A stretch of DNA of 64,000 bases from Escherichia coli (GTDB taxonomy: Bacteria > Pseudomonadota > Gammaproteobacteria > Enterobacterales > Enterobacteriaceae): the NCBI RefSeq assembly GCF_009931435.1, contig NZ_CP043414.1; one strand, 5' to 3'. A program made the position numbers and the translations under genes. Below the pieces are notes generated by a model. It did not search any database, was not told where the DNA came from, and was given only the letters and a program-made list of their open reading frames with translations. This document shows positions 12,875-35,713 of the stretch, one piece after another (position 1 is the stretch's first letter; each line of letters opens with the position of its first letter).

Positions 12875-12990
12875 ACCAAACGACTCGGGGTGCCCTTCTG
12901 CGTGAAGGCTGAGAAATACCCGTATCACCTGATCTGGATAATGCCAGCGTAGGGAAGTCACAGACCACCAGGTCATTGCTTCTTCACGTT
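12875..12990 (+). promoter_or_regulatory. TPP riboswitch (thi box) in the thiM leader
   Basis: ggggtgcccttctgcgtgaaggctgagaaatacccgtatcacctgatctggataatgccagcgtagggaa immediately upstream of thiM; conserved THI-element core (ctgaga, cctgatctggataatgccagcg). Boundaries approximate. Confidence 0.9.
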
Positions 12991-13006
12991 ATGGCAGGAG
13001 CAAACT

Positions 13007-13795: not shown

Positions 13796-14592
13796 AACGG
13801 ATTAACGCTCTGACAATTGCAGGCACTGATCCCAGTGGTGGCGCAGGAATTCAGGCAGATCTCAAAACGTTCTCTGCACTTGGTGCTTATGGTTGTTCAG
13901 TAATAACCGCCCTGGTAGCGCAAAACACCCGAGGCGTGCAATCGGTGTATCGCATAGATCCTGATTTTGTCGCCGCGCAGTTGGATTCGGTGTTCACTGA
14001 TGTGCGAATCGACACCACTAAAATCGGTATGTTGGCGGAAACCGATATTGTTGAAGCGGTGGCAGAACGGTTGCAACGTTATCAGATCCAAAACGTGGTA
14101 CTCGACACCGTTATGCTGGCAAAAAGCGGCGACCCTCTGCTTTCACCTTCGGCGGTTGCCACGCTGCGCAGTCGATTATTGCCACAGGTTTCATTAATAA
14201 CGCCAAACTTGCCCGAAGCTGCCGCCTTGCTCGACGCGCCACACGCGCGCAACGAACAGGAAATGCTGGAACAAGGGCGATCGCTGTTGGCGATGGGCTG
14301 TGGCGCAGTGCTAATGAAAGGTGGTCATCTGGATGATGAGCAAAGCCCGGACTGGCTGTTTACTCGCGAGGGGGAACAACGGTTTACTGCACCGCGCATT
14401 ATGACCAAAAACACCCACGGCACTGGTTGTACGCTCTCTGCGGCGTTGGCTGCACTGCGCCCGCGCCATACAAACTGGGCTGACACCGTCCAGGAGGCAA
14501 AAAGCTGGCTTTCATCGGCGTTAGCCCAGGCCGACACGCTGGAAGTTGGTCACGGTATTGGTCCGGTTCACCACTTCCACGCCTGGTGGTGA
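13792..14592 (+). CDS. thiD: Hydroxymethylpyrimidine/phosphomethylpyrimidine kinase
   Basis: 266-aa [30 protein letters not shown] (ribokinase-like HMP-P kinase). Confidence 0.95.
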
Positions 14593-14656
14593 GCACCTTA
14601 CTATAGCTGCTTTGGTTATTGTCAGTATTTAGCGCTGACATTCAGGGATGAAACCA

Positions 14657-15475
14657 ATGCAGCTGAGAATCACCAGTCGAAAAAAATTCACCGCTTTATT
14701 ATGCGCTCTTGGGCTAATTTCCATCGTTGCAATTTATCCGCGTCAGACGGTGAATTTTTTCTATTCGACAGCAATTCAGATTAAAGACTACATCCACTTC
14801 TACGGTTATCGTCCGGTTAAATCTTTCGCTATTCGCATTCCTGCCAGTTACACCATTCACGGAATAGATGTTTCGCGCTGGCAGGAGCGGATCGACTGGC
14901 AGCGGGTGGCAAAAATGCGCGATAACGGTATTCGCTTGCAATTTGCCTTTATCAAGGCGACGGAAGGCGAAAAACTGGTGGACCCGTATTTTTCGCGTAA
15001 CTGGCAACTAAGCCGCGAAAATGGCCTGTTGCGTGGGGCGTATCATTATTTTTCCCCGTCGGTATCCGCCTCAGTTCAGGCGCGATTATTTCTGCAAACG
15101 GTGGATTTTGCCCACGGTGATCTCCCTGCTGTGCTGGACGTAGAAGAGCGCGGAAAATTATCGGCGAAGGAATTACGCAAGCAGGTAAGTCAGTGGCTAA
15201 AAATGGTCGAAAAAAGCACAGGAAAAAAGCCGATTATTTATGCAGGCGCGACGTTTTATCACACGAATCTGGCGGGGTATTTCAATGAATATCCGTGGTG
15301 GGTGGCTCACTATTATCAACGTCGTCCGGACAATGACGGCATGGCCTGGCGCTTCTGGCAGCATTCCGACCGTGGACAGGTAGATGGCATTAATGGTCTG
15401 GTGGATTTTAATGTGTTTAATGGCACGGTGGAGGAGCTGCAGGGATTCGTTGATGGGATTAAAGAAACGCCTTAA
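14657..15475 (+). CDS. yegX: Glycoside hydrolase family 25 (lysozyme-like) protein
   Basis: Track ORF starts 14648; ATG at 14657 has better Shine-Dalgarno spacing and gives 272 aa. GH25-like motifs (GIDVSRWQ, FAFIKATEG). Confidence 0.8.
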   Translation: MQLRITSRKKFTALLCALGLISIVAIYPRQTVNFFYSTAIQIKDYIHFYGYRPVKSFAIRIPASYTIHGIDVSRWQERIDWQRVAKMRDNGIRLQFAFIKATEGEKLVDPYFSRNWQLSRENGLLRGAYHYFSPSVSASVQARLFLQTVDFAHGDLPAVLDVEERGKLSAKELRKQVSQWLKMVEKSTGKKPIIYAGATFYHTNLAGYFNEYPWWVAHYYQRRPDNDGMAWRFWQHSDRGQVDGINGLVDFNVFNGTVEELQGFVDGIKETP

Positions 15476-16273: not shown

Positions 16274-17212
16274 TTCCTCGCGGGTTGGCGCGCAATCACC
16301 GCCGCGATGCCCGACAACCCACGACGCCACTGCATTGCCCAGCAATACGGCATCCGCCAGTGGCAAACCAGAGGCCAGTCCAGCTAATACGCCACCTGCA
16401 TGACTGTCGCCCGCCCCAATGGTGTCTACAACTTGCGTTGGAAATGCCGGGATGCAGCCAGAAGCGTTATTGCTGAAATACCATGCGCCTTCTTTATCGA
16501 GACGAACGATCAACGGCGCGGCAAATTTCTCCTGCCATTGCTTGCCAAGTGTTGTTATCTCTGCTGATAAAGCAAAACGTTCGGCGGCAATCTCACCCTC
16601 CTGACGATTGAGTGACACTAAAGGTCGACAGGCCATGATTCGCGCCAGTAATGCATCCGGGATATCGCCAATACGTGGGCCAAAATCGATGAACGGCGTC
16701 ACGTCTTGCAGACTCTCCAGCCATTCCACTAACAATTCACCGCAGGGCGAGGCCAGTTGATAACCAGAAAAATAGAGCAGGCTGCCAGGCGCAACGGTTA
16801 ATCGCGCCAACCATTCGCGATTCCACTGATTTTCCACACCACTGAACGACATAAACGTGCGTTCACCATCAGGCTCAACCAGCGCCAGACACCAGCCGTT
16901 ATCGCCTTCGGCGTTATCGATGAGGCTGATTAATCCTTCTTTCGCCATCCGGTTACGAATAATTTCCGCCCACACACCCTGGCCGAGCGGCAGGGCATTA
17001 CCCGCTTCGATACCGAGGCGCTTTAACGCCACGGCAATATTCAGTGCGCAGCCGCCAACGTTAACGCTCTGCTGTTTCAGTTCGATATCGCACCCACGCC
17101 AGGGGAGGGCATAAGCGTCGGCGATCACATCAATGACTGCCGCGCCGACGACCATCACCGGCTGACGCGTGGTTAATTCAGGCAGCAGCGTGTGTAATCG
17201 AGCGCCGCTCAT
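16247..17212 (-). CDS. yegV: PfkB-family sugar/nucleoside kinase
   Basis: 321-aa ORF with ribokinase-family signatures (GGCALNIAVALKRLG; DTIGAGDSHAGG). 3' end overlaps the convergent yegW by 27 nt. Confidence 0.85.
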   Translation of the reverse strand: MSGARLHTLLPELTTRQPVMVVGAAVIDVIADAYALPWRGCDIELKQQSVNVGGCALNIAVALKRLGIEAGNALPLGQGVWAEIIRNRMAKEGLISLIDNAEGDNGWCLALVEPDGERTFMSFSGVENQWNREWLARLTVAPGSLLYFSGYQLASPCGELLVEWLESLQDVTPFIDFGPRIGDIPDALLARIMACRPLVSLNRQEGEIAAERFALSAEITTLGKQWQEKFAAPLIVRLDKEGAWYFSNNASGCIPAFPTQVVDTIGAGDSHAGGVLAGLASGLPLADAVLLGNAVASWVVGHRGGDCAPTREELLLTHKNV

Positions 17213-18213
17213 GCCGCCTCCCGTTGTTGGCGATACTTTGCCAGCGCCGTGGCATAATGATTAAAATCAAGCTGATTTACCGCATCCAGCTCCGTCTTAA
17301 ACGCAGGATCGATAGCGTTAACGCCATGCAATGCGCCGCAAATCGCCGTCGCCATAGCGCCGATGGTGTCTGTGTCGCCGCCAAGGTTAGCGCACAGGAT
17401 GGCGCAACGGTTCGGGTCGGTTTGTGCCAGTTCAACCAGCGCAATGGCGCACGGAACGGACTCAATAGTACTGGTACCTGCCCCAACCACCTGATACAGC
17501 TGTTCGCTGGCGGATTCGGTGCCGTCGGCATTGCGCACAATTTTCAGCGCAATCTCCAGACGTGCTGCCAGTGAGGCGCTGAAGGTAGTGATGCGTTTTT
17601 GCTGTGCATGTCGCGCAATCGAGGGTAGAGAATCAACAATCGCTGACCAGCTTTCTCCGTCAATGGCACGGGAAATCGCCCATGCGATGACTACCGCACC
17701 TGCCACCGCCAGATCGGATTTATGGGTCGGGCTGGACGCCAGCGCCACATCATCAATAAAGGAATCAACATTGCGCGCCGGAAGCAAACAACCTAATGGC
17801 GAGACGCGCATCGCTGCGCCGTTGGTCACGCCATTGTTTTCCAGTTCAGCAACGGGTTTACCGTCGCGAATGGCGTTAAGCGCAATCTTCGAGGTCGGAC
17901 CTAGTACGTTTTTGTTAAAGGCGTCGAAACGCAGCGCCCAGTCGAGAATATTACGCCCAATCAGATCCGGATCGATCTTGCCTTCACGTTCCAGTAACGC
18001 ATCCGCCAGACACAGCGCCATCGAGGTATCGTCGGTGAATTCGGCGCGGTTAAAATAACAGGCCGCGTTATTCTCCTTTGGTCCAGGAAGAAAACGGTCA
18101 ATCCAGCCAAAGTGTGCTTTAACGCGGCTGCGTGGCCAAAGCTCGGAGGGCATCCCCATCGCATCCCCTAACGCCTGCCCATAAAGAGCACCGAGAATAC
18201 GTTCTGTTTTCAT
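17209..18213 (-). CDS. yegU: ADP-ribosylglycohydrolase-family protein
   Basis: 334-aa ORF MKTERILGALYGQALGDAMGMPSE; 4-nt overlaps with yegT upstream and yegV downstream. Confidence 0.85.
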   Translation of the reverse strand: MKTERILGALYGQALGDAMGMPSELWPRSRVKAHFGWIDRFLPGPKENNAACYFNRAEFTDDTSMALCLADALLEREGKIDPDLIGRNILDWALRFDAFNKNVLGPTSKIALNAIRDGKPVAELENNGVTNGAAMRVSPLGCLLPARNVDSFIDDVALASSPTHKSDLAVAGAVVIAWAISRAIDGESWSAIVDSLPSIARHAQQKRITTFSASLAARLEIALKIVRNADGTESASEQLYQVVGAGTSTIESVPCAIALVELAQTDPNRCAILCANLGGDTDTIGAMATAICGALHGVNAIDPAFKTELDAVNQLDFNHYATALAKYRQQREAA

Positions 18214-19487
18214 TTAACTTCCCCTTGTGTCAACGCAATATCGCGATCATCGACCTTGATAGCCGTAATTTCGTTGTCGGATTCGCGGAAAAAAATCATG
18301 AACAGCACGGCGATAATGGCAATCATCACCGCGCCGAAAGTCCACATCCCGGACCAGTTGAAAGTCAGTCCGTTTACCGGTTCCGGATAAGCGAACATCT
18401 TTTCCATCATCACACCGCCAAGACGATAGCCGAGCAAACTGCCGAATCCCTGGCAGCAGAGCGTGATCAGCCCCTGCGCAGCGGTACGCATATGCACGGG
18501 GGCTTTTTTATCGACATAGATGTAAGCGGTAACGTAGTAAAAATCGTAACTTACGCCATGCAGCAAAATGCCGAGGAACAGTAACGCGTAGGTGAAATAT
18601 TCATCCGCACTACCGTAAATAAAGAAGCCATAGCGGATCGCTGCGGTGACCAGACCAAGTAATAATACCTTTTTGATACCAAAGCGTTTAGTGAAAAACG
18701 GTAATGCCAGCATAAAGAATATTTCAGAGAACTGGCCGAGCGTCATCCAGCCGGTGGCATTTTTCATGCCGACTTCGGTCAGATAACCGTTGGCAAAGAT
18801 GTAATAGAACGCCAGTGGCATCGCAAACAGGAATGAACAGAAGAAAAAGACGAGGAAGTTTTTATCGCGCAGCAGGATCAGCGCATCCAGGCCGAGCATG
18901 ACTTTAATATCCATTTTGCCGGTGCTTTTTGGTGGCGTGTCGGGCAGGAAAAACGCAAACACACCGAGCAGAGCAGAACTTCCGGCGGTAATCAGCAGCG
19001 GGATGTTAGTCGGTGAGATATCGGCATACCCCAGTATTTGCGGCAAGAAACCACATGCCAGACCGGAGGCAATCCAGCCGATAGTGCCCATCACACGAAT
19101 GCGCGGGAAATCACGCTCAACATCCGGCACGTTGGCAAAAGCGATGCTGTTAGTCAGCGCAATGGTCGGCATATAGGTTAGCGAGTAGGCCAGCAGTAAC
19201 GGGAAGAACCCGGCAAAAGTGGTCTGTTGCGCAGCGAAATACATCAGCAGCGCGCCTGCGAACATCAATACCGCCAGCACTTTCTGCGCCGAGAAAAAGC
19301 GGTCAGTGATGGAGCCAACCAGAATTGGCGACAGGATCGCCGCAATGGCGGTACAGGCATACGACCAGCCAATTTCTCCGGCACTAAAACCGCTTTTACT
19401 TAACCACAACCACAATGGCACAAACCACGCGCCCCAGATAAACCATTCAACAAACATCATGAACGACAGCTTTGCTGTTGTTTTCAT
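18210..19487 (-). CDS. yegT: MFS nucleoside transporter-like protein
   Basis: 425-aa polytopic membrane protein; first gene of the yegT-yegU-yegV array. Confidence 0.85.
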   Translation of the reverse strand: MKTTAKLSFMMFVEWFIWGAWFVPLWLWLSKSGFSAGEIGWSYACTAIAAILSPILVGSITDRFFSAQKVLAVLMFAGALLMYFAAQQTTFAGFFPLLLAYSLTYMPTIALTNSIAFANVPDVERDFPRIRVMGTIGWIASGLACGFLPQILGYADISPTNIPLLITAGSSALLGVFAFFLPDTPPKSTGKMDIKVMLGLDALILLRDKNFLVFFFCSFLFAMPLAFYYIFANGYLTEVGMKNATGWMTLGQFSEIFFMLALPFFTKRFGIKKVLLLGLVTAAIRYGFFIYGSADEYFTYALLFLGILLHGVSYDFYYVTAYIYVDKKAPVHMRTAAQGLITLCCQGFGSLLGYRLGGVMMEKMFAYPEPVNGLTFNWSGMWTFGAVMIAIIAVLFMIFFRESDNEITAIKVDDRDIALTQGEVK

Positions 19488-19743
19488 CTTTTAATTCCTT
19501 CATGACAGGTAATGTAAGGTACACGATGACAATACCACTTAATAATACCTTTTAAATACCTTTGCGGTGAAAACTTGACCGCGCTAACATTTTTTCTGAT
19601 GAATCGAGCCAACAGAAAACGCTGAAAAAACATCCAAAAGATGGAAAAACTCGCCCGTAACGACCAGGATTATGATTGCCCGCAAAAGGCGGGCCAGGAC
19701 AATCCATAGCCGATATCCAATCGGAATTTACGGGAGCATAGTA

Positions 19744-20796
19744 ATGACAGATATTGCGCAGTTGCTTGGCAAAGACGCCGACAACCTTTTACAGCACCGT
19801 TGTATGACAATTCCTTCTGACCAGCTTTATCTCCCCGGACATGACTACGTAGACCGCGTAATGATTGACAATAATCGCCCGCCAGCGGTGTTACGTAATA
19901 TGCAGACGTTGTACAACACCGGGCGTCTGGCTGGCACAGGATATCTTTCTATTCTGCCGGTTGACCAGGGCGTTGAGCACTCTGCCGGAGCTTCATTTGC
20001 CGCTAACCCGCTCTACTTTGACCCGAAAAACATTGTTGAACTGGCGATCGAAGCGGGCTGTAACTGTGTGGCGTCAACCTACGGCGTGCTGGCATCGGTA
20101 TCGCGGCGTTACGCGCATCGCATTCCATTCCTTGTCAAACTTAATCACAACGAGACGCTAAGTTACCCGAACACTTACGATCAAACGCTGTATGCCAGCG
20201 TGGAGCAGGCGTTCAACATGGGCGCGGTGGCGGTTGGCGCGACCATCTATTTTGGCTCGGAAGAGTCACGTCGCCAGATTGAAGAAATTTCTGCGGCTTT
20301 TGAACGTGCGCACGAGCTGGGCATGGTGACCGTGCTGTGGGCCTATTTGCGTAACTCCGCCTTTAAGAAAGATGGCGTCGATTATCACGTTTCGGCTGAC
20401 CTGACCGGCCAGGCTAACCATCTGGCGGCAACCATAGGCGCAGATATCGTCAAACAAAAAATGGCGGAAAATAACGGCGGCTATAAAGCGATTAATTACG
20501 GTTATACCGACGATCGCGTGTACAGCAAGTTGACCAGCGAAAACCCGATTGATCTGGTGCGTTATCAGTTAGCTAACTGCTATATGGGTCGGGCTGGGTT
20601 GATAAACTCCGGCGGTGCTGCGGGCGGTGAAACTGACCTCAGCGATGCAGTGCGTACTGCGGTTATCAACAAACGCGCTGGCGGAATGGGGCTGATTCTT
20701 GGACGTAAGGCGTTCAAGAAATCGATGGCTGACGGCGTGAAACTGATTAATGCCGTGCAGGACGTTTATCTCGATAGCAAAATTACTATTGCCTGA
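19744..20796 (+). CDS. fbaB: Fructose-bisphosphate aldolase class I
   Basis: Track ORF 19672 has a 24-codon extension; ATG at 19744 gives [20 protein letters not shown] (350 aa). Confidence 0.95.
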
Positions 20797-20823
20797 TACG
20801 CCTCATACGAACAGCACCACCCC

Positions 20824-20937
20824 GTAGGACGGATAAGGCGTTTACACTGCATCCGGCAACCTATGCCTGATGCGACGCGGAAGCGTCTTATCATGCCTAC
20901 ATAGCACTGCCACGTATGTTTACACCGCATCCGGCAT
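20824..20937. repeat. REP/BIME cluster (about three REP units)
   Basis: Imperfect palindromic units of the gccggatgcggcgtaaacgccttatccggcctac type in alternating orientation. Confidence 0.7.
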
Positions 20938-20956
20938 AAAAACACGCGCACTTTGC

Positions 20957-20990
20957 TACGGCTTCCCTATCGGGAGGCCGTTTTTTTTTG
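20957..20990 (+). terminator. Probable rho-independent terminator of fbaB
   Basis: Hairpin cggcttccc...gggaggccg followed by a run of nine T. Confidence 0.6.
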
Positions 20991-21051
20991 CCTTTTACTC
21001 CTCGAACAATTTTCACATTGTCGTTTTTGTGATCGTTATCTCGACATTTAA

Positions 21052-21976
<925 letters not shown>

Positions 21977-21977
21977 T

Positions 21978-23251
<1,274 letters not shown>

Positions 23252-23260
23252 GGACGGTAT

Positions 23261-23713
23261 ATGACTAACCTGTTTGTTCGTAGCGGAATTTCTTTTGTCG
23301 ATCGTAGCGAAGTTTTAACCCATATCGGTAATGAGATGCTCGCCAAAGGTGTGGTTCATGATACCTGGCCACAGGCATTAATTGCCAGAGAAGCAGAATT
23401 CCCTACCGGGATAATGCTTGAGCAGCACGCCATTGCAATACCGCATTGTGAGGCGATTCATGCTAAGTCGTCAGCCATTTATCTGTTAAGGCCAACAAAT
23501 AAAGTTCATTTTCAGCAAGCGGATGATGATAACGACGTGGAGGTATCGTTGGTTATTGCGTTGATTGTGGAAAATCCGCAGCAGCAATTGAAACTTTTAC
23601 GCTGTTTATTTGGCAAGTTACAACAGCCCGATATCGTCGAGACACTAATCACTCTTCCTGAAACCCAGTTAAAGGAATACTTCACAAAGTATGTTTTAGA
23701 TTCAGACGAATAA
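23261..23713 (+). CDS. gatA: Galactitol PTS enzyme IIA
   Basis: 150-aa ORF, position in gat operon. Confidence 0.9.
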   Translation: MTNLFVRSGISFVDRSEVLTHIGNEMLAKGVVHDTWPQALIAREAEFPTGIMLEQHAIAIPHCEAIHAKSSAIYLLRPTNKVHFQQADDDNDVEVSLVIALIVENPQQQLKLLRCLFGKLQQPDIVETLITLPETQLKEYFTKYVLDSDE

Positions 23714-23743
23714 ATCCCTCTGTAACAATAAAAAGGACTATTT

Positions 23744-24028
23744 ATGAAACGCAAGATTATTGTCGCTTGCGGAGGCGCGGTTGCGACCTCTACGATGGCG
23801 GCGGAAGAAATTAAAGAGTTGTGTCAGAATCATAATATTCCTGTTGAATTAATCCAGTGTCGGGTTAATGAAATAGAAACCTATATGGATGGTGTGCATT
23901 TGATATGCACCATTGCCAAAGTGGATCGTAGTTTTGGCGATATTCCGTTAGTTCACGGCATGCCTTTTATTTCTGGTGTCGGTATCGAAGCATTACAAAA
24001 TAAAATTCTGACTATCTTACAGGGGTGA
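23744..24028 (+). CDS. gatB: Galactitol PTS enzyme IIB
   Basis: 94-aa ORF with N-terminal Cys motif ([12 protein letters not shown]). Confidence 0.9.
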
Positions 24029-24031
24029 CCT

Positions 24032-25387
24032 ATGTTTTCAGAAGTCATGCGTTATATTCTCGACCTCGGCCCTACAGTGATGCTGCCGGTTGTCATCATT
24101 ATTTTTTCTAAAATATTAGGCATGAAGGCAGGCGATTGCTTTAAAGCGGGTCTGCATATCGGGATTGGCTTTGTTGGCATTGGCCTTGTGATTGGCTTAA
24201 TGCTGGATTCCATTGGTCCGGCGGCGAAAGCGATGGCGGAAAATTTCGACCTGAATCTGCATGTGGTCGATGTCGGCTGGCCGGGCTCTTCACCAATGAC
24301 CTGGGCGTCGCAAATTGCGCTGGTGGCGATTCCGATTGCGATATTGGTTAACGTGGCGATGTTACTGACCCGTATGACGCGGGTGGTAAATGTTGATATC
24401 TGGAATATCTGGCATATGACCTTCACCGGCGCGTTGCTGCACCTGGCAACCGGTTCATGGATGATAGGGATGGCAGGTGTGGTAATTCACGCGGCGTTTG
24501 TTTATAAGCTCGGCGACTGGTTTGCCCGCGATACCCGAAATTTCTTTGAGCTGGAAGGTATTGCTATTCCGCACGGTACGTCGGCGTATATGGGGCCGAT
24601 TGCGGTGCTGGTCGATGCTATCATCGAGAAAATCCCAGGCGTTAACCGAATTAAATTTAGCGCCGACGATATTCAGCGCAAATTTGGCCCTTTTGGCGAA
24701 CCTGTCACCGTGGGTTTTGTGATGGGGCTGATTATCGGCATCCTCGCGGGTTACGATGTCAAAGGTGTATTGCAGCTGGCGGTAAAAACGGCGGCAGTTA
24801 TGCTGCTGATGCCACGGGTGATTAAACCCATCATGGATGGTTTAACGCCCATCGCTAAGCAGGCCCGTAGTCGTTTACAGGCGAAGTTCGGCGGTCAGGA
24901 GTTCCTGATTGGCCTGGATCCCGCATTACTGCTGGGGCATACGGCGGTGGTATCGGCAAGCCTGATTTTTATCCCACTCACCATTTTAATTGCTGTTTGT
25001 GTGCCGGGTAATCAGGTGCTGCCGTTTGGCGATCTTGCCACTATCGGCTTCTTTGTGGCGATGGCGGTCGCGGTGCATCGTGGAAATCTGTTCCGCACCT
25101 TAATCTCGGGTGTCATCATTATGAGCATCACCCTGTGGATCGCGACGCAAACTATTGGTTTGCACACCCAACTGGCGGCTAATGCTGGGGCGTTAAAAGC
25201 CGGGGGTATGGTGGCTTCAATGGATCAGGGCGGTTCTCCCATTACCTGGTTACTGATTCAGGTTTTCTCCCCGCAAAATATTCCCGGTTTCATTATTATC
25301 GGTGCAATTTATCTGACCGGTATTTTCATGACCTGGCGTAGAGCGCGTGGCTTTATTAAACAAGAGAAAGTCGTTCTCGCAGAATAA
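24032..25387 (+). CDS. gatC: Galactitol PTS enzyme IIC
   Basis: 451-aa polytopic membrane protein. Confidence 0.9.
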   Translation: MFSEVMRYILDLGPTVMLPVVIIIFSKILGMKAGDCFKAGLHIGIGFVGIGLVIGLMLDSIGPAAKAMAENFDLNLHVVDVGWPGSSPMTWASQIALVAIPIAILVNVAMLLTRMTRVVNVDIWNIWHMTFTGALLHLATGSWMIGMAGVVIHAAFVYKLGDWFARDTRNFFELEGIAIPHGTSAYMGPIAVLVDAIIEKIPGVNRIKFSADDIQRKFGPFGEPVTVGFVMGLIIGILAGYDVKGVLQLAVKTAAVMLLMPRVIKPIMDGLTPIAKQARSRLQAKFGGQEFLIGLDPALLLGHTAVVSASLIFIPLTILIAVCVPGNQVLPFGDLATIGFFVAMAVAVHRGNLFRTLISGVIIMSITLWIATQTIGLHTQLAANAGALKAGGMVASMDQGGSPITWLLIQVFSPQNIPGFIIIGAIYLTGIFMTWRRARGFIKQEKVVLAE

Positions 25388-25434
25388 TTTTTACCTGAGG
25401 GGGAGGTTATCCCCCTTAACAATCAGGAGTTTTT

Positions 25435-26475
25435 ATGAAATCAGTGGTGAATGATACTGATGGTATCGTGCGCGTTGCAGAAAGCGTCATTCCTGAAATT
25501 AAACATCAGGATGAGGTGCGGGTAAAAATTGCCAGCTCGGGCTTATGTGGTTCCGATTTACCCAGGATATTTAAAAATGGTGCACATTATTATCCAATAA
25601 CGTTAGGCCATGAATTTAGCGGCTATATTGATGCGGTGGGATCCGGTGTTGATGATTTACACCCTGGCGATGCGGTTGCCTGTGTGCCGTTATTACCCTG
25701 TTTTACTTGTCCAGAGTGTCTGAAAGGGTTTTATTCCCAGTGCGCAAAATATGATTTTATTGGCTCGCGGCGTGATGGTGGATTTGCTGAATATATTGTC
25801 GTTAAGCGAAAAAATGTCTTTGCTCTACCCACGGATATGCCTATTGAGGATGGGGCTTTTATTGAGCCGATTACCGTTGGTCTGCATGCTTTTCATTTAG
25901 CGCAAGGTTGTGAGAATAAAAACGTTATTATTATTGGTGCCGGAACCATTGGCCTGCTGGCTATTCAGTGCGCTGTCGCGCTGGGAGCAAAGAGTGTGAC
26001 GGCTATCGACATTAGCTCAGAAAAACTGGCACTGGCAAAATCTTTCGGTGCGATGCAAACATTTAACAGTAGCGAAATGAGCGCGCCGCAAATGCAGAGC
26101 GTTTTACGCGAACTGCGTTTTAATCAGCTTATCCTCGAGACGGCTGGCGTACCGCAAACTGTCGAACTGGCGGTAGAGATTGCCGGTCCTCATGCCCAAC
26201 TGGCGCTGGTGGGCACGTTGCATCAGGATCTGCATTTAACATCGGCAACGTTTGGCAAAATATTGCGTAAAGAGCTGACGGTTATCGGCAGTTGGATGAA
26301 CTATTCCAGCCCTTGGCCGGGGCAGGAGTGGGAAACGGCGAGCCGGTTGCTGACAGAACGTAAGTTAAGCCTGGAGCCATTAATCGCTCACCGTGGAAGC
26401 TTTGAAAGCTTCACCCAGGCGGTGCGTGACATCGCTCGTAATGCCATGCCGGGCAAAGTGTTGCTCATTCCATGA
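25435..26475 (+). CDS. gatD: Galactitol-1-phosphate 5-dehydrogenase (Zn-dependent MDR family)
   Basis: 346-aa ORF with zinc-ADH signatures (GHEFSGYI; CxxCxxC; GAGTIG). Confidence 0.95.
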   Translation: MKSVVNDTDGIVRVAESVIPEIKHQDEVRVKIASSGLCGSDLPRIFKNGAHYYPITLGHEFSGYIDAVGSGVDDLHPGDAVACVPLLPCFTCPECLKGFYSQCAKYDFIGSRRDGGFAEYIVVKRKNVFALPTDMPIEDGAFIEPITVGLHAFHLAQGCENKNVIIIGAGTIGLLAIQCAVALGAKSVTAIDISSEKLALAKSFGAMQTFNSSEMSAPQMQSVLRELRFNQLILETAGVPQTVELAVEIAGPHAQLALVGTLHQDLHLTSATFGKILRKELTVIGSWMNYSSPWPGQEWETASRLLTERKLSLEPLIAHRGSFESFTQAVRDIARNAMPGKVLLIP

Positions 26476-26574
26476 AACCGCGGGCCAGCGTGATGCTGGC
26501 CCGGTATTGTGCAAAACAGATCATTCACCAATGGTCCCCCTTCGTTTACACTAGCCACAATTGAATATGGGTAA

Positions 26575-27354
26575 ATGACGATGAATTCATTCGAGCGAAG
26601 GAATAAGATCATCCAATTAGTGAATGAACAGGGAACCGTGCTTGTTCAGGATCTGGCGGGAGTATTTGCTGCCTCGGAAGCGACAATCCGTGCCGATTTG
26701 CGCTTTCTCGAACAAAAAGGCGTGGTTACGCGCTTTCATGGCGGTGCGGCGAAAATAATGTCCGGTAATAGTGAAACCGAGACCCAGGAAGTCGGGTTTA
26801 AAGAGCGATTTCAGCTCGCCAGCGCGCCCAAAAACAGAATAGCGCAGGCGGCAGTCAAAATGATCCATGAAGGGATGACCGTTATTCTCGACAGCGGAAG
26901 TACCACAATGCTTATCGCCGAAGGATTAATGACCGCTAAAAATATCACGGTGATTACCAACAGTCTCCCGGCTGCGTTTGCCCTTTCCGAAAATAAAGAC
27001 ATTACTCTGGTCGTCTGCGGTGGCACGGTCCGCCATAAAACGCGCTCGATGCATGGTTCCATTGCCGAGCGTTCATTGCAGGATATTAATGCCGATTTAA
27101 TGTTTGTCGGTGCTGATGGTATTGATGCGGTTAATGGTATTACGACCTTTAATGAAGGTTATTCGATTAGCGGGGCGATGGTCACCGCCGCTAATAAAGT
27201 GATTGCCGTTCTCGATTCATCGAAATTTAACCGTCGCGGTTTTAATCAGGTACTGCCAATCGAAAAAATTGACATTATTATTACCGATGATGCTGTGTCT
27301 GAGGTGGATAAACTGGCATTGCAGAAGACACGGGTAAAATTAATTACGGTGTAG
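26575..27354 (+). CDS. gatR: DeoR-family repressor of the gat operon (uninterrupted)
   Basis: 259-aa continuous ORF with N-terminal DeoR helix-turn-helix and C-terminal sugar-phosphate-binding domain; no insertion element present. Confidence 0.9.
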   Translation: MTMNSFERRNKIIQLVNEQGTVLVQDLAGVFAASEATIRADLRFLEQKGVVTRFHGGAAKIMSGNSETETQEVGFKERFQLASAPKNRIAQAAVKMIHEGMTVILDSGSTTMLIAEGLMTAKNITVITNSLPAAFALSENKDITLVVCGGTVRHKTRSMHGSIAERSLQDINADLMFVGADGIDAVNGITTFNEGYSISGAMVTAANKVIAVLDSSKFNRRGFNQVLPIEKIDIIITDDAVSEVDKLALQKTRVKLITV

Positions 27355-27365
27355 TATTGTTCTGT

Positions 27366-27399
27366 ATGCCGGATAAGGTATTTACACTGCATCCGGCAT
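27366..27399. repeat. REP element
   Basis: atgccggataaggtatttacactgcatccggcat palindromic unit between gatR and yegS. Confidence 0.6.
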
Positions 27400-27435
27400 T
27401 TCGGATTCTCCCTGGTTCAAGAGAGAATAGTTTGA

Positions 27436-28335
27436 TTAACGCAATAATGGACAATCTGGTGGTAATCGACAACGCAACGCCGCCGGAAGTATTTCAATAT
27501 GAAAGTTTTGTCCGCTCAACGGTTCGCCATCAAGATTAAAAGTGATTTCGTGTGGGGCTTGTATATCAAACCACGACGAAGCGCCTTCGATAATATTCGG
27601 GTTATCTTCGTCAGATTTTAAGGTTGATACGAGAGCCGGAAGAATTTCATCGCCGGTAAAAATGCGCAGTTGCAGCAAGCCATCGTTAATTAACGCGTTC
27701 GGACACAATTGCTGACCGCCACCGGCCTGACGCCCGTTACCAATACCAATGACCAGGGCGTCACCTTGCCAGTGAAAGTTTTCACCGCGGATTTCACAAC
27801 GGTCCGGTTGCAGAGTATCCATGCGCATTAAGCCATGAATGATGTAAGAGACGCCACCCAGCGCGGCTTTTAATTTTTCCGGCGTTTCTGTGGTAATACG
27901 CGTCCCAAATCCGCCTGTCGCCATATTAATAAAACAGGTTTGTTTGTTGACCTGCGCCATATCTATCGCAATGGCGTTACCGGCAATTGCCAGTTTCAGC
28001 GCCTTATCCAGTGCCTCAGGAATCCCTACACTGGTGGCAAAATCATTGGCGGTTCCTAATGGCAAAATTCCCAGCGCGGGTATGTCATCCCCCTCACACT
28101 GAATCAACGCCGTAGAAACTTCATTAATGGTGCCATCGCCACCACCGGCAATCACCGTTGCGACGCCCAACTTCCGGGCCTCCTCTACATATCGTGCGGC
28201 ATCGCCTTTCTCCCAGGTGACCCGCACATGGATCGTCATTCCTTCCTCACGCAACAGCATAATTGCTTCGCGCAAGGGTAGATTGTCAGTACTTTTGCCA
28301 TTAAGAATCAGTAAGCTGGCGGGAAATTCTGCCAT
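27436..28335 (-). CDS. yegS: Lipid kinase YegS (DAGK/sphingosine-kinase-like fold)
   Basis: 299-aa ORF with GGDGT motif ([13 protein letters not shown]). Confidence 0.9.
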
Positions 28336-28741
28336 GATCGTATGTGCCTTTATGATTGGTCTGTAGATAGTGTAGAGCAGAAAACAAAAGGTGGAGTCAG
28401 AACAGGATGAAAGTCGGAGGATAAAAAGTCAGTTCAAGTATGGAGGATTCAGTGGTTACCACCAGGAGCTTGCAATGGGGGACAGCGAATACTAACGGCT
28501 GCCACCGATAAATTTCAAAAAAGAGCATATACCTAATATTCAACTAAACAGTGGCATCTTCAATATAATATATTAAAGCCCCCATGGAGTTACCCTGAAG
28601 GGCCTCAATGTCCGTAATTCCTACTTATGTAGGAAATGTTGTACAGAACATTTATTATAATCCTATTCAATTATAATAATCATGCCATTATTATATTTAA
28701 ACACTAGAGAGTGTCGTTGGTATTTAATGGGGGAAGGTGAG

Positions 28742-29059
28742 ATGAAAAAGATAGCTGCTATATCATTAATTAGTATTTTTATTGTGTCTGGTTGTGCTGT
28801 GCATAATGATGAGACAAGTATCGGTAAATTTGGTCTTGCATATAAAAGTAATATTCAGCGTAAACTCGATAACCAATACTACACCGAAGCCGAAGCTTCT
28901 TTAGCCAGGGGCAGAATATCTGGTGCAGAAAATATAGTAAAAAATGATGCAGCCCATTTCTGTGTTACTCAGGGCAAAAAAATGCAGATAGTTGACCTGA
29001 AGACAGAAGGTGCAGGATTACATGGCGTCGCTCGTCTGACATTCAAATGTGGAGAGTGA
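28742..29059 (+). CDS. yegR: Small lipoprotein
   Basis: ATG at 28742 preceded by ggggaaggtgag; MKKIAAISLISIFIVSGCAVH has a lipobox (VSGC); 105 aa. Track ORF carries an unlikely 20-codon extension. Gene symbol from position and size, from memory. Confidence 0.65.
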   Translation: MKKIAAISLISIFIVSGCAVHNDETSIGKFGLAYKSNIQRKLDNQYYTEAEASLARGRISGAENIVKNDAAHFCVTQGKKMQIVDLKTEGAGLHGVARLTFKCGE

Positions 29060-29217
29060 GAATATTTTTTGGTAAGCGTCAAACATGCGCGTTCTGGTTG
29101 TGCTTAGCCGGAACCTGTGCGAGCACGATGCCGTTACGTGAAAGGCATCGTGCTATGAAGGGAGATTCTATCGATGTGGTCAATGGAAGACGGTGACCAG
29201 GGATAGGGCTTATGCAT

Positions 29218-29304
29218 AAAAAATAAGCCCGTGTAAGGGAGATTACACAGGCTAAGGAGGTGGTTCCTGGTACAGCTAGCATTTTATGGGTTATGTTTTT
29301 CAGC
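29218..29304 (-). ncRNA. cyaR: CyaR (RyeE) Hfq-dependent small RNA
   Basis: Minus-strand sequence GCUGAAAAACAUAACCCAUAAAAUGCUAGCUGUACCAGGAACCACCUCCUUAGCCUGUGUAAUCUCCCUUACACGGGCUUAUUUUUU matches the CyaR sequence as I recall it, including the terminator hairpin and U-tail. Confidence 0.85.
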
Positions 29305-29388
29305 GAAACGGATGATAACCTTAATAAATGCAGCTGTATGTGATCGGTTTCTAAGAATTTTCCATCCGGGAAAAATAATCGAAATTAA

Positions 29389-30750
29389 TCACTTACCGTG
29401 GGGGTTACGCGTGGTTTCCCCGGAGAAATGACGCATCAGCAGCGCGTAATTTAGCTCAAGATCCTGCGGCACCGGGAGCCACACAGTATAACCATCGCCT
29501 GGTGCTACCGGCATAGCTTCGCCTTTGGCGTTTTCCATGTGCTCAAGGGTAAAGTTAATGTTGCCTTGCGGCGTCATCAGCTCAAGGCTGTCGCCAACGG
29601 AGAATTTATTTTTCACCGCTACCGCCGCGAGGTCCCCCTTGCGCTCACCGGTAAACTCACCAACAAACTGCTGGCGGTCAGAAACCGAATAACCGTATTC
29701 GTAGTTCTGATAATCGTCGTGAGTATGACGACGCAGGAAACCTTCGGTATAGCCACGATGCGCCAGACCTTCCAGAGTTTCCAGCAGGCTGGTATCGAAC
29801 GGTTTGCCCGCAGCGGCATCATCGATAGCTTTACGATAAACCTGTGCGGTGCGTGCGCAATAGTAGAAAGATTTAGTACGGCCTTCGATCTTCAGCGAAT
29901 GCACGCCCATTTTGGTCAGGCGTTCTACATGGGCGATGGCGCGCAGATCTTTCGAGTTCATGATGTAAGTGCCGTGCTTATCTTCAAACGCGGTCATATA
30001 CTCGCCCGGACGCTGGGCCTCTTCGATCATAAACACTTTGTCGGTTGGTGCGCCGATACCCAGCGTCGGCTCAACATTTTGCACCGGAATCGGCTCGTAC
30101 TTGTGTACGATGTTGCCAACATCATCTTCTTTCCCTTCCTGGACGTTGTACTCCCAGCGGCAGGCGTTGGTGCAGGTGCCCTGGTTCGGGTCGCGCTTGT
30201 TGATATAGCCAGAGAGCAGGCAGCGACCGGAGTAGGCCATGCACAGCGCGCCGTGAACGAAGATCTCGATCTCCATATCCGGCACCTGATTGCGGATCTC
30301 TTCAATCTCTTCCAGCGACAGCTCGCGAGAGAGGATCACGCGGGTCAGGCCCATTTGCTGCCAGAATTTCACCGTCGCCCAGTTCACGGCGTTAGCCTGC
30401 ACCGAAAGGTGGATCGGCATTTCAGGGAAGTGCTCACGCACCAGCATAATCAGCCCTGGATCGGACATAATCAGCGCATCCGGCCCCATTTCCACCACCG
30501 GTTTCAGGTCACGGATAAAGGTTTTCAGCTTGGCGTTGTGCGGTGCAATGTTGACCACGACATAAAACTTTTTCCCCAGCGCGTGGGCTTCATTGATGCC
30601 GAGCTGAAGATTTTCGTGGTTGAATTCGTTGTTGCGCACACGCAGGGAATAACGCGGCTGGCCCGCATAAACAGCATCTGCGCCATAAGCGAAAGCGTAA
30701 CGCATATTTTTCAGCGTTCCCGCCGGGGAAAGGAGTTCCGGTTTAAACAT
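29389..30750 (-). CDS. yegQ: Peptidase U32-family protein
   Basis: 453-aa ORF MFKPELLSPAGTLKNMRYAFAYGADAVYAG, U32 collagenase-like family. Confidence 0.9.
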   Translation of the reverse strand: MFKPELLSPAGTLKNMRYAFAYGADAVYAGQPRYSLRVRNNEFNHENLQLGINEAHALGKKFYVVVNIAPHNAKLKTFIRDLKPVVEMGPDALIMSDPGLIMLVREHFPEMPIHLSVQANAVNWATVKFWQQMGLTRVILSRELSLEEIEEIRNQVPDMEIEIFVHGALCMAYSGRCLLSGYINKRDPNQGTCTNACRWEYNVQEGKEDDVGNIVHKYEPIPVQNVEPTLGIGAPTDKVFMIEEAQRPGEYMTAFEDKHGTYIMNSKDLRAIAHVERLTKMGVHSLKIEGRTKSFYYCARTAQVYRKAIDDAAAGKPFDTSLLETLEGLAHRGYTEGFLRRHTHDDYQNYEYGYSVSDRQQFVGEFTGERKGDLAAVAVKNKFSVGDSLELMTPQGNINFTLEHMENAKGEAMPVAPGDGYTVWLPVPQDLELNYALLMRHFSGETTRNPHGK

Positions 30751-30852
30751 AATTCTCTCGTTCTGATGACAGGTCAGATCCGCTTCACCTGATGAAGCGG
30801 TTAGGGGAGTGCCCCCACTTTAAGGGCGGGCATTGTAGCGCAATCGGCGGGT

Positions 30853-31149
30853 TTAGCTCCAGTGTAAATGTCTGGTGGCGTCCTGGTTTTGGTTAAGGAT
30901 ACGAATGACGATAATTTCCCCTGGTGATTGCAGGAAATAAATGACGTGGCGTTCAAAAGAAAGAACAAAAATACCTTCGCCTAATTCAGGTCTGGGCGTA
31001 CCTATATTATTGTTACTCAGAATCTGGAGAACGTCTGAAAGATGTTCCACATATCTGTCGGCTTGTGGTTCGCCGAAATGGTGATAGCTGTAATACCAGA
31101 TGCCTTCTAAATCCTCATTGGCTTTTGGCATGAGTTTAATAATACGCAC
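30853..31149 (-). CDS. ParE/RelE-superfamily type II toxin
   Basis: 98-aa ORF MRIIKLMPKANEDLEGIWYYSYHHFGEPQADRYVEHLSDVLQILSNN, ParE-like; starts 1 nt after the stop of the upstream antitoxin ORF. Confidence 0.8.
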   Translation of the reverse strand: MRIIKLMPKANEDLEGIWYYSYHHFGEPQADRYVEHLSDVLQILSNNNIGTPRPELGEGIFVLSFERHVIYFLQSPGEIIVIRILNQNQDATRHLHWS

Positions 31150-31150
31150 A

Positions 31151-31402
31151 TTATTTCCTTATCCCTGCTTTCACCTTCCGTAAGAACGCGTCCTTTTCCC
31201 ACGGCTGAGCTTCACCACTACTCAACCCTTCTGCGAGCATGTCACGTAACGCTTGCAGGCGAGACTCTGCTTGCTTTTCTCGAAGTAATCGCAGTGACTC
31301 ACGGATCACTTCGCTTTGGGTGCGATAGTCGCCGGATTCAATTAAGGACTCGATAAATTCACGCAACTCATCGCCGAGATCAACCGTCATCGTTCTGGCC
31401 AT
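31151..31402 (-). CDS. ParD-family type II antitoxin (RHH)
   Basis: MARTMTVDLGDELREFIESLIESGDYRTQSEVIRESLRLLREKQ resembles ParD antitoxins; start chosen at ATG 31402 (83 aa) over the track start at 31447. Confidence 0.8.
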   Translation of the reverse strand: MARTMTVDLGDELREFIESLIESGDYRTQSEVIRESLRLLREKQAESRLQALRDMLAEGLSSGEAQPWEKDAFLRKVKAGIRK

Positions 31403-31617
31403 TTTACGCCCGCCTGTAAGTAAAAATCTTACATCAGTGTATGTCATAAACCGGATAGCGTCACGAAAGTATTAGAAGATATTTTGGCACATGAACATGT
31501 TCAGGAGGATAAGTATGGGATGGTAAACAAAGAAAGCACAACGAGTGCTCGTCAGTGCCCACTATTTTAATGGCGGCGGTTACTCTTAATTATTAATAAC
31601 TAAGCGTTATTTGGATA

Positions 31618-31652
31618 TAAAGCCGGACGCCAACAACCCACGCCCGGCATCG
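31618..31652 (-). terminator. Probable rho-independent terminator of yegP
   Basis: Hairpin gccgggcgtgg...cgtccggc followed by UUUAUAU on the minus-strand transcript, just downstream of the yegP stop. Confidence 0.5.
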
Positions 31653-31655
31653 TAA

Positions 31656-31988
31656 TTACGTATTGTCTTTCACCGTCTGGCTTGTGCCATTGGCTTTAAC
31701 GGAGGCAATTCCGGTTTCACGAGATTGCGCGGTGGCGTACATCTGGCTGGAGCCGATAATTTGATGATTAGCGGCTTTCAGATTGAAATAGAATTTGCCG
31801 TTACTTGCCGTTTTTTTCTCATAGCGTTCTTCTTGCGGGCTGTTGCTACGCACCGACGCGATGCCCTTTTCCGCAGAGGCTTTTGAGGTATACAGCTCGC
31901 TGGTGAGGATAGTCTCACCATTGCCCGCTTTTAGCACAAACCGGAACTGATTATCACTGCTCTTACTGAGTTCAAACCAACCAGCCAT
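31656..31988 (-). CDS. yegP: UPF0339/DUF1508 tandem-repeat protein YegP
   Basis: Internal ATG gives MAGWFELSKSSDNQFRFVLKAGNGETILTSELYTSKASAEKGIASV (110 aa) with two DUF1508-like repeats. Confidence 0.85.
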   Translation of the reverse strand: MAGWFELSKSSDNQFRFVLKAGNGETILTSELYTSKASAEKGIASVRSNSPQEERYEKKTASNGKFYFNLKAANHQIIGSSQMYATAQSRETGIASVKANGTSQTVKDNT

Positions 31989-32178
31989 AATGACTCCTTG
32001 ATTGAAATTGCGTATCGAAAACAGCATCTAAAGGTGCTGTTTACCGATTAAAGTATGAGCGATTTTCTGATGCCTGCCAGGGCGGAGAGATAATGTCAGT
32101 TTGCTGACCATGCGTGGGATAATGTTGCCGGATCTGGTCTGAACGCCATCTCCGGCTAACAAAGTCATGTCGCTAAAA

Positions 32179-32901
32179 CTAAACGATGCGGCAGGCGTCG
32201 GCTTCCCAGCGGTAACCGACGCCGTAAACGGCGCGGATAAATGACTGTTCGGCGTCGAGAGATTCCAGCTTGCGGCGCAGGTTTTTAATGTGGCTGTCGA
32301 TGGTGCGGTCGGTTACTACGCGGTAGTCGTCATAAAGATGATTGAGCAAATGCTCGCGGGAGAACACTTTTCCTGGTTCATGAGAGAGCGTTTTCAGCAG
32401 ACGAAATTCCGCAGGTGTCAGGTCAAGCATTTTACCGCGCCATGAAGCCTGAAAACGACCTTCGTCGATAATCAACGGGCTTTCAGCATCCTGTTGCTGC
32501 AACTCGCGCTGCGGTTTGCAACGGCGCAAAATGGTTTTGACGCGCGCTACCACTTCCCGTGGGCTGTACGGCTTGCAGATGTAGTCATCTGCGCCAATCT
32601 CCAGTCCGAGCAGGCGGTCGATCTCTTCGATTTTTGCCGTCACCATCACGATAGGAATGTCAGAAAAACGACGAATTTCCCGGCACAGCGTCAAGCCATC
32701 GATGCCAGGGAGCATCAGATCCAACAGGATCAGATCCGGTGGTGTCTGGCGCACATACGGCAGTACCTGATCGCCGTGGCTGATAAGCGTCGGCGCATAG
32801 CTCGCAGCACGCAGATAATCAATGAGCAACTGCCCCAGCTTCGGTTCATCTTCCACGATCAAAATACGCGGTGTGTTTTCGTCGATTGGTAACTCGGTCA
32901 T
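32179..32901 (-). CDS. baeR: Envelope-stress response regulator (OmpR family)
   Basis: 240-aa ORF with receiver domain ([11 protein letters not shown]; [14 protein letters not shown]) and winged-helix C-terminus. Confidence 0.95.
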
Positions 32902-34301
32902 ACTTCTCTCTGTAAATCCCGTTCCAGCGGTAACTCTACTGTAATGCTTACCCCGCCAAAAGGCGAATGGGCAGCAATAATGCGACCATTATGTGCTTCA
33001 ACAATGTTCAGGCAAATCGCCAGCCCCAGCCCGGAACCGCCGCTGGCACGGTTGCGGGAACCGTCGGTGCGATAAAAACGTTCAAACAATTTTTGTAGCT
33101 GATCGTCACTGACACCTGGCGCACTGTCGGCAAAGGTCAGGCGCACCGTTTTGTCGCGCTGCCCGGCAGAGATTTGCAGGCTGCCGCCGCTGTCAGTGTA
33201 GCGCAGGCTGTTTTCCAGTAAGTTATTGAATAACTGCATTAAACGGTCGCGATCGCCAAATACGGTAATACTGTCTGGCAGGGAAAATTGCAGTTTCAGG
33301 CCACGACTGGCGAATCGTTCGCGAAATGCGCCGCCCGCCACTTCCAGCAGTGGGATCAAATCTACCGGTGCTTTTTGATAGGCGAGAGCGCCTTCATCAG
33401 ACATCGACAACTGATGGAGATCGTCAACCAGTTTGGTCAGTGTACCGACCTCCGCCTGTAAAGACGCCACCGTCTCCGGCGTGAATTTACGCACGCCATC
33501 CTGAATGGCTTCCAGTTCACCGCGCAGCACCGCTAATGGCGTACGCAGTTCGTGAGAAATATCGGCCATAAAATCGCGCCGCATTTGCTGGTTTTTCTCC
33601 AGTGTGCTGGCAAGCTGGTTGAAGTCTTGCGCCAGTTTGCCCAGTTCATCTTCACTGGTGGGCGTTACGCGGGTAGTGAAATCGCCCGCCGCCAGTTTGT
33701 GCGTGCCATCGACAAGTCGTTTTACCGGTGCCAGTAAACCGCGCGCCAGCAGAAAAGTGGCAAGTGCCGCGAGTAACGTTGCCAGGGCGACAATCAACCA
33801 GCTGGTTTGCCGCTGTTGTTTATCGAAATTGATATCAGTATTGCGCGTTAACCGCTCAACGGGGGAGGCGATCACCGCGCCAACTTCCGCACCGTTGACC
33901 AGAATGGGTCGCCGTGTACCGTCAGGTGGAATCGGCGCTCGCGGACCAACCAGCACTTTGTTGTTTTGATCAACCACCCAGAACTGGGTACGCCAGCCGT
34001 GCGGTGGCATACCCGGGCCGGGTTTATCTTCCGAATTATCGTGTTCAAATGAACGCAGGATCTGAAAGACAAAGCGATCATTGTTGCGCAGGAAGCGCCA
34101 GTTGCCATGCTGCGCATACTGCTCGCCAAGCGCATCACTTAACAGTTGTAATCGCTGTTCATTACCATGCTTGATGTAATCAATAAAGCCACGCTCAAAA
34201 CTGATACGCACCGCCCAGTGCATACTGATCAGCAAGACAATGCAGGTGGCGAAAATCGCCAGAAACAGTTTGCCGGTAATACCAGGTCGCCAGAACTTCA
34301 T
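32898..34301 (-). CDS. baeS: Envelope-stress sensor histidine kinase
   Basis: 467-aa ORF with H-box ([11 protein letters not shown]) and ATP-binding G-boxes; 4-nt overlap with baeR. Confidence 0.95.
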
Positions 34302-35713
34302 TGCGCGCTCCTTTTTCGCCGCGAAATAGCTACATTTTGATGCGTATCGTTCGGCACTCTGGCAAAGATGAACGCCGGAAGGGCGATGATAAACGCCATG
34401 CTAAGCCAGGTGTACATAAAGACGGTTTGTGTGGTGCCGCTGTCGACGCTGACATGCTGCGAACCAAAAAGTCCCAGCAACAGCCCGGCGATGGTGACGC
34501 CGATACTCATCGACAATTGCATAATCATCGACAGCAGGCTGTTTCCGCTGCTCGCCAGATTGTCCGGGAGATCTTTCAGCGTCAGGGTGTTCATGGAGGA
34601 GAAACGCGTCGAGTTGACCATCCCTTGTAAAAACAGGACGAACGGCAAAACGTAGTACCAGCCCAGCAGAGCGGTAGTCATAAACAACAGGGTGACCAGC
34701 GACAGACCCAGCGTGGTCGCTACCAGTACCCGACGATAACCAAAGCGATTCACCACCTGTACAACAATTCGCTTCATTCCCATGCTGCCAAGCACCATCG
34801 GGATCATCATCAGTCCGGCATGAAACGGCGAGAAACCGAGGCCAATTTGCAGGAAAACCGGTGTCATAAAGGGCAACATGCCACTGCCAATACGTCCGGC
34901 AAAGCTCCCCGCCAGGCCCAGCGAAAAGGTACGAGTGCGGAACAGTTTCAGACTGAAAAGAGCGCGGTTGTTATTTCTGGCGTGCAGCAAATAAAGCACC
35001 AGTGCCACCACGCCAACTGCGACCAGGCCATCAATCGTCAGCGGCGATAAACCTGTACCTTTACTGCCGTCCAGCGCCAGGGTTAATACCGCCATGCCAA
35101 CCGCTAGCAATAAAAAGCCGGAGAGATCGAAGCGCCGCGTCTGCATGGTATAGTTCGGCATTAACATCAATGTGGCGATCGCACCGATAATCCCCACCGG
35201 AATGTTGATCAAAAAGATCCAGTGCCACGACGCGTACTCCACCAGCAGACCGCCGAGCGCCGGACCGAGCAGCGGACCGACCTGACCGGGTAACGTGACA
35301 AAGGTCATCGCCGCCATATATTGCTCGCGCGGTACGATTTTCATCACCGTCAATCTGCCGACCGGCACCATCATCGCGCCGCCAACGCCCTGTAACGCGC
35401 GTGCCAGCAACAGTTCGTTCAGCGTGCCGGAAAGCGCGCAAAACAGTGAACCGAGAGTAAACAGCACGATGGCGGTAAAGAAAATATTGCGCACGCCGAC
35501 TTTGTCCGCCAGCCAGCCGCTGGCGGGCAGCATCACCGCCACGGTCAGCACATAAGAGACAATGACCATGTGCATATGCAACGGACTTTCCCCGAGGCTT
35601 TGCGCCATTGAGGGAAGGGCGGTGTTTACGATGGTGGTGTCCAGCGACTGCATAAAGAAGCCGAAAGCCACAATCCACAATTGCCAACGGGTGCTGTCGG
35701 GAAGATCTGTCAT
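34298..35713 (-). CDS. mdtD: MFS transporter MdtD
   Basis: 471-aa membrane protein; 4-nt overlap with baeS. Confidence 0.95.

Follow-up and report, generated by a model that had tools for sequence, protein, structure and literature searches.

Does the gatR gene of this Escherichia coli strain encode a working repressor of galactitol catabolism, or is it broken as in laboratory K-12? We addressed this question in a 64,000-nucleotide stretch of contig NZ_CP043414.1, referred to here as the window. A first-pass annotation had noted that an insertion sequence (IS) in K-12 gatR makes gat expression constitutive, and the literature agrees in linking the two (PMC5850726, PMC4072538, bioRxiv 10.64898/2026.01.05.697630). 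Constitutive gat expression in K-12 leads in turn to the selection of gat-negative mutants during mouse gut colonisation (PMC5850726, PMC5094792). Both the function of gatR and its disruption in K-12 are thus already known, from a literature going back to 1996; the wild-type gene was originally reported in isolate EC3132 (Nobelmann & Lengeler 1996, J Bacteriol 178:6790, as cited in PMC4072538 and PMC9997739). Our analysis indicates with high confidence that positions 26575/26581-27354 of the window are the functional wild-type gatR of a non-K-12 E. coli, encoding a DeoR-family repressor of gatYZABCD.

The gatR reading frame is uninterrupted

In the window, which is E. coli chromosome, the gene was found directly downstream of gatYZABCD on the same strand and convergent with yegS, within the gene order yegT-fbaB-gatYZABCD-gatR-yegS-yegR-cyaR-yegQ-parED-yegP-baeRS-mdtDCB. 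The frame and its protein domains were as follows.

26575..27354, plus strand: gatR coding sequence; longest ORF, 259 aa, ATG start (ORF list and translation)
26596..26754, plus strand: HTH_DeoR, N-terminal winged helix-turn-helix DNA-binding domain (Pfam PF08220, residues 8-60 of the 259-aa frame)
26827..27288, plus strand: DeoRC, C-terminal effector-sensing/oligomerisation domain (Pfam PF00455, residues 85-238)

The frame translates without an internal stop to a TAG at 27352-27354. It is separated from the gatD stop (gatD 25435..26475) by a spacer of 99 nt, and gatR itself contains no insertion sequence. A frameshift or premature stop had been named as grounds for abandoning the intact-gene reading, and re-translation revealed neither. 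The helix-turn-helix domain was matched with E=1.3e-16 (60.5 bits against a cut-off of 21) and the sensor domain with E=2.5e-51 (174 bits, covering profile positions 5-159 of 160), which gives GatR both of the domains that characterise the DeoR family of transcriptional regulators. The earlier description of a continuous 259-aa DeoR-family ORF following gatD without an IS is therefore upheld by the ORF list, the translation and the Pfam domains.

The length of 259 aa should be read as that of the longest ORF and not as that of the annotated gatR product, because annotations of both C41 and MG1655 begin at the second ATG (26581). In strain C41, which matches the window at 100% identity over 26400-27500, the PGAP annotation starts there and yields a 257-aa protein, WP_001295426.1; the curated MG1655 record agrees on this start, with a first gene fragment of 299 nt. 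Neither candidate start (26575 or 26581) is preceded by a good Shine-Dalgarno sequence. A mini-ORF of 3 codons (ATG GGT AAA TGA) at 26564-26577 has a stop that overlaps the first gatR ATG (ATGA), probably by chance.

The IS3E target site is empty

In K-12 strains JM83 and MG1655, gatR is annotated as two pseudogene fragments with an IS3 between them (IS3E in MG1655). Aligning the window to these K-12 fragments had been suggested as a check, and doing so located the insertion point precisely.

26877..26879, plus strand: GAC, empty IS3E target site (K-12 alignment, junction analysis, blastn and MG1655 annotation)

This triplet, duplicated in K-12, lies at about codons 101-102 (Met-Thr) of the 259-aa frame. 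The K-12 5' fragment ends in ...GGGATGAC, the IS3E is 1258 bp long (TGATCCTACCC...GGGTAAGATCA), and the 3' fragment restarts with GACCGTT, from which it follows that GAC is a 3-bp target duplication. PGAP's K-12 fragment end runs one base too long, taking in one base of the IS3. In a local blastn comparison of the window with MG1655, the blocks break at 26879/26877 with a gap of 1258 bp on the window side. The window runs continuously across the GAC site, and it does not carry the MG1655-type gatR::IS3E allele. When IS3E and one copy of GAC were removed from K-12 gatR in silico, a 780-nt frame was restored whose product is 100% identical to that of the window; the two differ at 14/780 nucleotides, all of them at third codon positions and synonymous. 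The statement that an IS disrupts K-12 gatR was thus accurate, and the element and its target duplication can now be named.

Other gat lesions exist in these strains. JM83 carries an IS4 within gatY (JM83 locus 12566-14859) and gatC is annotated as a pseudogene in the MG1655 reference (MG1655 locus 10922-12279), each separate from the gatR insertion. The gat locus has been described as an IS hotspot in K-12, which these extra lesions fit, and in the K-12 strain EMG2 the locus has been lost (PMC9997739).

The protein is that of a genetically tested repressor

Read from the ATG at 26581, the window protein is the GatR of E. coli HS, with the same RefSeq accession (WP_001295426.1), and identity is 100% to the reconstructed K-12, HS and C41 proteins alike. 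This matters for function: Sousa et al. (2017) replaced the MG1655 gatR pseudogene with HS gatR and obtained a regulated gat operon, and new IS insertions in the swapped-in gene gave constitutive mutants in mice (PMC5850726). Further background comes from a CRISPRi preprint, in which the wild strains LF82 and CFT073 benefited strongly when gatR was silenced; its authors read this as gatR holding the gat operon repressed in these strains, and attributed the lack of such a signal in MG1655 to the IS3E insertion (bioRxiv 10.64898/2026.01.05.697630).

The expected targets of the repressor are also in order.

21106..26475, plus strand: gatYZABCD structural genes, expected GatR targets; ORFs full length with no internal stops

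GatY, Z, A, B, C and D measure 284, 420, 150, 94, 451 and 346 aa, respectively, with 1-3 substitutions each relative to HS.

The gatY promoter and the gat spacers

We searched the control region of the operon by promoter/terminator scan, repeat search and allele alignment.

20986..21105, plus strand: gatY promoter/operator region (promoter/terminator scan, repeat search, allele alignment)
21041-21070, plus strand: -35/-10-like pair TCGACA-18 nt-CATTAT (consensus scan of the gatY region)
21028-21032, plus strand: CRP-like half-site TGTGA in the gatY region
21019-21026 and 21088-21095, flanking the gatY promoter: 8-bp inverted repeat TGTCGTTT/AAACGACA, candidate GatR operator pair (repeat search)

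Four positions of the window's gatY promoter differ from MG1655 and three from HS, and each of these states is seen in other natural strains. Six E. coli alleles chosen for their divergence hardly vary in the promoter core (~21010 to 21105). The window's 120-bp promoter stretch was matched at >=99% identity in 1212 genomes. Identity bands reaching down to 90% raised the idea of a hypervariable promoter, which we rejected: in the alignment, most between-strain variation of the probe lies in the fbaB terminator and T-run of the spacer (20958-20990), and not in the core. The inverted repeat is the only one found at gatY and is about what chance could give; we treat its two arms as a putative GatR operator pair. 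The repeat search returned no motif common to the regions upstream of gatY and gatR. The AgaR operator consensus was compared with the gatY promoter by eye and had too many mismatches to claim anything.

Two further palindromic features border gatR.

26481..26503, plus strand: hairpin CGGGCCAGC-5 nt-GCTGGCCCG, 9-bp, G+C-rich, no T-run, just after the gatD stop (repeat search)
27366..27399, no strand assigned: REP-like palindrome ATGCCGGAT...ATCCGGCAT between the convergent gatR and yegS (read from the sequence)

The consensus scan did not score the hairpin as a terminator. From its sequence, it may serve as a weak attenuator or as a stabiliser of the mRNA end between gatD and gatR. The palindrome at 27366-27399 we take to be a REP element, going by its likeness to the REP consensus; REP-like palindromes of the GCCGGATAAGGCGTTTACACTGCATCCGGCA type occur both in this gatR-yegS gap and in the fbaB-gatY spacer (20828-20945). 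A consensus promoter/terminator scan of the 99-nt gatD-gatR spacer found no credible sigma-70 promoter for gatR.

Because the GatR protein is identical to that of the functional HS allele, the gatYZABCD genes are intact and the gatY promoter core belongs to common natural alleles, we predict a repressible, galactitol-inducible gat operon in this strain, and hold this to be highly probable. The repressible operon proposed in the first-pass annotation thus gains support from the identity with HS GatR, the protein with which regulation was restored (PMC5850726), and from the integrity of the structural genes and promoter core.

gatR is widely uninterrupted and under selection in E. coli

The window segment 26400-27500 found a match in 5110/5426 complete E. 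coli genomes and was uninterrupted in 4756/5426 (about 88%), uninterrupted meaning that a single place accounted for 80% or more of the query. Since such a coverage count misses frameshifts and nonsense mutations, the number of intact gatR copies is at most 4756; Sousa et al. predicted that natural loss-of-function alleles of gatR should segregate. A 120-bp probe spanning the K-12 gatR/IS3 junction was present whole in 344/5426 genomes, and the junction-positive genomes listed include the laboratory K-12 strains ER1709, RP437 and TG1. Partial gatR matches that are not of the K-12 type remain in only about 10 genomes (5110 - 4756 - 344). Rosetta2-DE3, a BL21 derivative, has a gatR without its N-terminus (locus 4001-4549), the 3' part of which adjoins uspF/ompN, and a second partial match elsewhere in its genome, which points to a rearrangement that broke within gatR.

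We then looked at coding integrity allele by allele. All eight genomes sampled evenly over the range of 99.0-97.0% identity carry an intact 257-aa CDS, and in five the protein is identical. Across 10 alleles (these eight, the window and HS) there are 42 polymorphic nucleotide sites, 40/42 of which lie at codon position 3, and the protein varies at two positions only (I196V and E241D). This concentration at the third position shows that selection acts on the frame and that the ORF did not arise by chance. For the same reason, two minus-strand ORFs within gatR (26617-26868 and 26811-27062, 83 aa each) were rejected as genes. Strong purifying selection of this kind, as judged from the alleles compared, is the signature of a gene in use.

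The strain is not K-12

The intact gatR had been taken, together with a ParDE insertion and the absence of ogrK/yegZ, as a sign of a non-K-12 lineage. The following features bear on this.

29221-29306, minus strand: cyaR sRNA gene between yegR and yegQ (Rfam CyaR_RyeE, 100.7 bits)
30842-31621: 780-bp ParDE type II toxin-antitoxin cassette between yegQ and yegP (Pfam ParE_toxin and ParD_antitoxin)
30853-31149, minus strand: ParE (Pfam ParE_toxin)
31151-31447, minus strand: ParD (Pfam ParD_antitoxin)

Over 16308-35177 the window is 97.9-98.9% identical to MG1655 at the nucleotide level, a divergence of 1.1-2.1%, and three structural differences separate the two: the window has no IS3E, has no PR-X remnant and carries the ParDE cassette. 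The roughly 0.6-kb PR-X remnant (ogrK, yegZ) is missing at the 3' end of cyaR. In MG1655 this cryptic P2-like prophage remnant adjoins the cyaR 3' end, and the window presents the empty site; the blastn blocks overlap there by ~26 nt (29210-29235), as expected of an attachment-site duplication. Pfam and the comparison with MG1655 thus verify both the ParDE insertion and the missing ogrK/yegZ. Neither MG1655 nor HS has the cassette, but 1843/5426 complete E. coli genomes do, strain W among them. Its presence or absence is a common polymorphism and not a rarity. E. coli HS lacks PR-X as well as ParDE.

Because of the 1.1-2.1% divergence and the three indels, the window is not K-12, and to this extent the conclusion on lineage stands. 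The use of gatR as evidence for it does not: gatR is also undisrupted in the K-12 strain NCM3722 (PMC3045373), so an intact copy alone is no proof of a non-K-12 lineage. As for the origin of the strain, the best match to the 24-kb segment 17000-41000 in the 5426-genome collection reaches 99.4%, although over the 1.1 kb at gatR identity to C41 is 100%. This points to a region made mosaic by recombination, or to a source strain that the collection does not contain.

Proposed mechanism

On the preferred reading, the winged helix-turn-helix at the N-terminus of GatR would bind operator DNA at the gatY promoter and block transcription of gatYZABCD. Binding of a pathway intermediate by the C-terminal DeoRC domain would then release the repressor. 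By analogy with other DeoR-family members, a sugar phosphate, for instance galactitol-1-phosphate, would most likely act as inducer. Catabolite control by cAMP-CRP is probably added on top, and the galactitol PTS and the tagatose-bisphosphate pathway would be expressed in this strain only when galactitol is present. In MG1655-type K-12, by contrast, IS3E in gatR leaves gat expression constitutive. Transcription of gatR itself would be supplied by read-through from the gatY promoter, by a weak promoter of its own, or by both.

A more speculative extension, which we think doubtful, is that GatR represses by DNA looping, the TGTCGTTT/AAACGACA arms bracketing the gatY -35/-10 pair and the CRP-like site, and/or that repression is too tight for wild strains to make full use of galactitol in the gut. 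Such under-use was suggested for LF82 and CFT073 by the CRISPRi preprint (bioRxiv 10.64898/2026.01.05.697630). If a near-invariant GatR did repress so tightly, gatR would be a recurrent target of adaptive loss.

Alternative readings of the locus

Could the ORF be a DeoR-family paralogue with another target, AgaR- or SrlR-like, and not the galactitol repressor? The best NCBIfam matches do point that way at first sight (AgaR, 232.9 bits over residues 3-259; SrlR, 226.3 bits), and the PGAP name is only the generic 'DeoR/GlpR family DNA-binding transcription regulator'. Both scores fall below the curated equivalog cut-offs (260 bits for AgaR, 350 for SrlR), however, and neither identity was accepted. 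NCBIfam holds no GatR-specific model, and with AgaR and SrlR below their cut-offs the assignment of the gene as the gatR orthologue rests on synteny and identity: it sits at the exact gatR locus, and its product is 100% identical in amino-acid sequence to reconstructed K-12 gatR (b4498) and to the genetically tested HS gatR (PMC5850726). We give a paralogue with another target virtually no chance. The same holds for the idea that the intact ORF stems from an error of sequencing or assembly, or from a pseudogene that reverted recently; nothing was found in favour of this, given that the same uninterrupted locus recurs in 4756/5426 independent complete genomes, that all eight sampled genomes carry the intact 257-aa CDS, and that the GAC target site is single-copy with no IS scar.

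A further reading is that the ORF is intact while regulation is lost or altered, through promoter or operator variants at gatY or through low transcription of gatR, leaving the operon constitutive or poorly inducible. Compared with MG1655 the gatY promoter does carry four substitutions, and compared with HS three, one of which turns the -35-like hexamer TCGATA into TCGACA; no clear gatR promoter was found; and the authors of the CRISPRi preprint suggest that in the mouse gut gat stays repressed in LF82 and CFT073 (bioRxiv 10.64898/2026.01.05.697630). Yet many natural strains share these promoter variants, and most of the six divergent alleles have TCGACA. The 1.1-kb gatD-gatR-yegS segment is moreover 100% identical to C41, its uninterrupted arrangement is shared by 4756 genomes, and the strong purifying selection on GatR implies a protein in use. 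We therefore regard lost or altered regulation as improbable, and a functional GatR acting on a repressible gat operon remains the preferred reading.

Significance and comparison with known systems

An intact gatR is the ordinary state of E. coli and the IS-broken copy of laboratory K-12 is the exception. With 4756/5426 complete genomes uninterrupted, the intact gene is not novel; it is also a weak strain marker, the same state being found in about 88% of complete genomes and even in K-12 NCM3722. By itself, the finding carries little weight. Its use lies in the contrast: MG1655-type K-12 is atypical at gat, with constitutive expression from IS3E, and galactitol catabolism should be normally regulated in the present strain, so that what K-12 leads one to expect, constitutive gat expression with the fitness cost it brings, does not carry over.

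The closest known system is E. coli GatR itself (b4498 in K-12), which occupies the same gatD-gatR-yegS locus as the window gene. The window gatR shows 14 synonymous nucleotide differences from K-12 and from HS alike, and lacks the IS3E that K-12 has. AgaR and SrlR (GutR), DeoR-family repressors of the neighbouring hexosamine and hexitol PTS pathways of E. coli, share with GatR the two-domain architecture and similarity over the full length; they differ in being at other loci, with other regulons and with scores under the equivalog cut-offs. A search for PDB matches found no solved GatR structure. The sole solved structure matching GatR at E<=1e-5 is PDB 7l6l, the C-terminal domain of E. coli DeoR, which has the DeoRC sensor domain in common with GatR (E=1.9e-11, residues 85-256). 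DeoR is a distant paralogue and responds to deoxyribose-5-phosphate. Finally, in Salmonella Typhimurium the gat promoters are likewise repressed by a DeoR-type GatR, which depends on its helix-turn-helix motif for this (Nolle et al. 2017, as cited in PMC7972205). We liken the two by description; the Salmonella protein belongs to another species and another gene cluster, in which the gat region handles D-tagatose as well.
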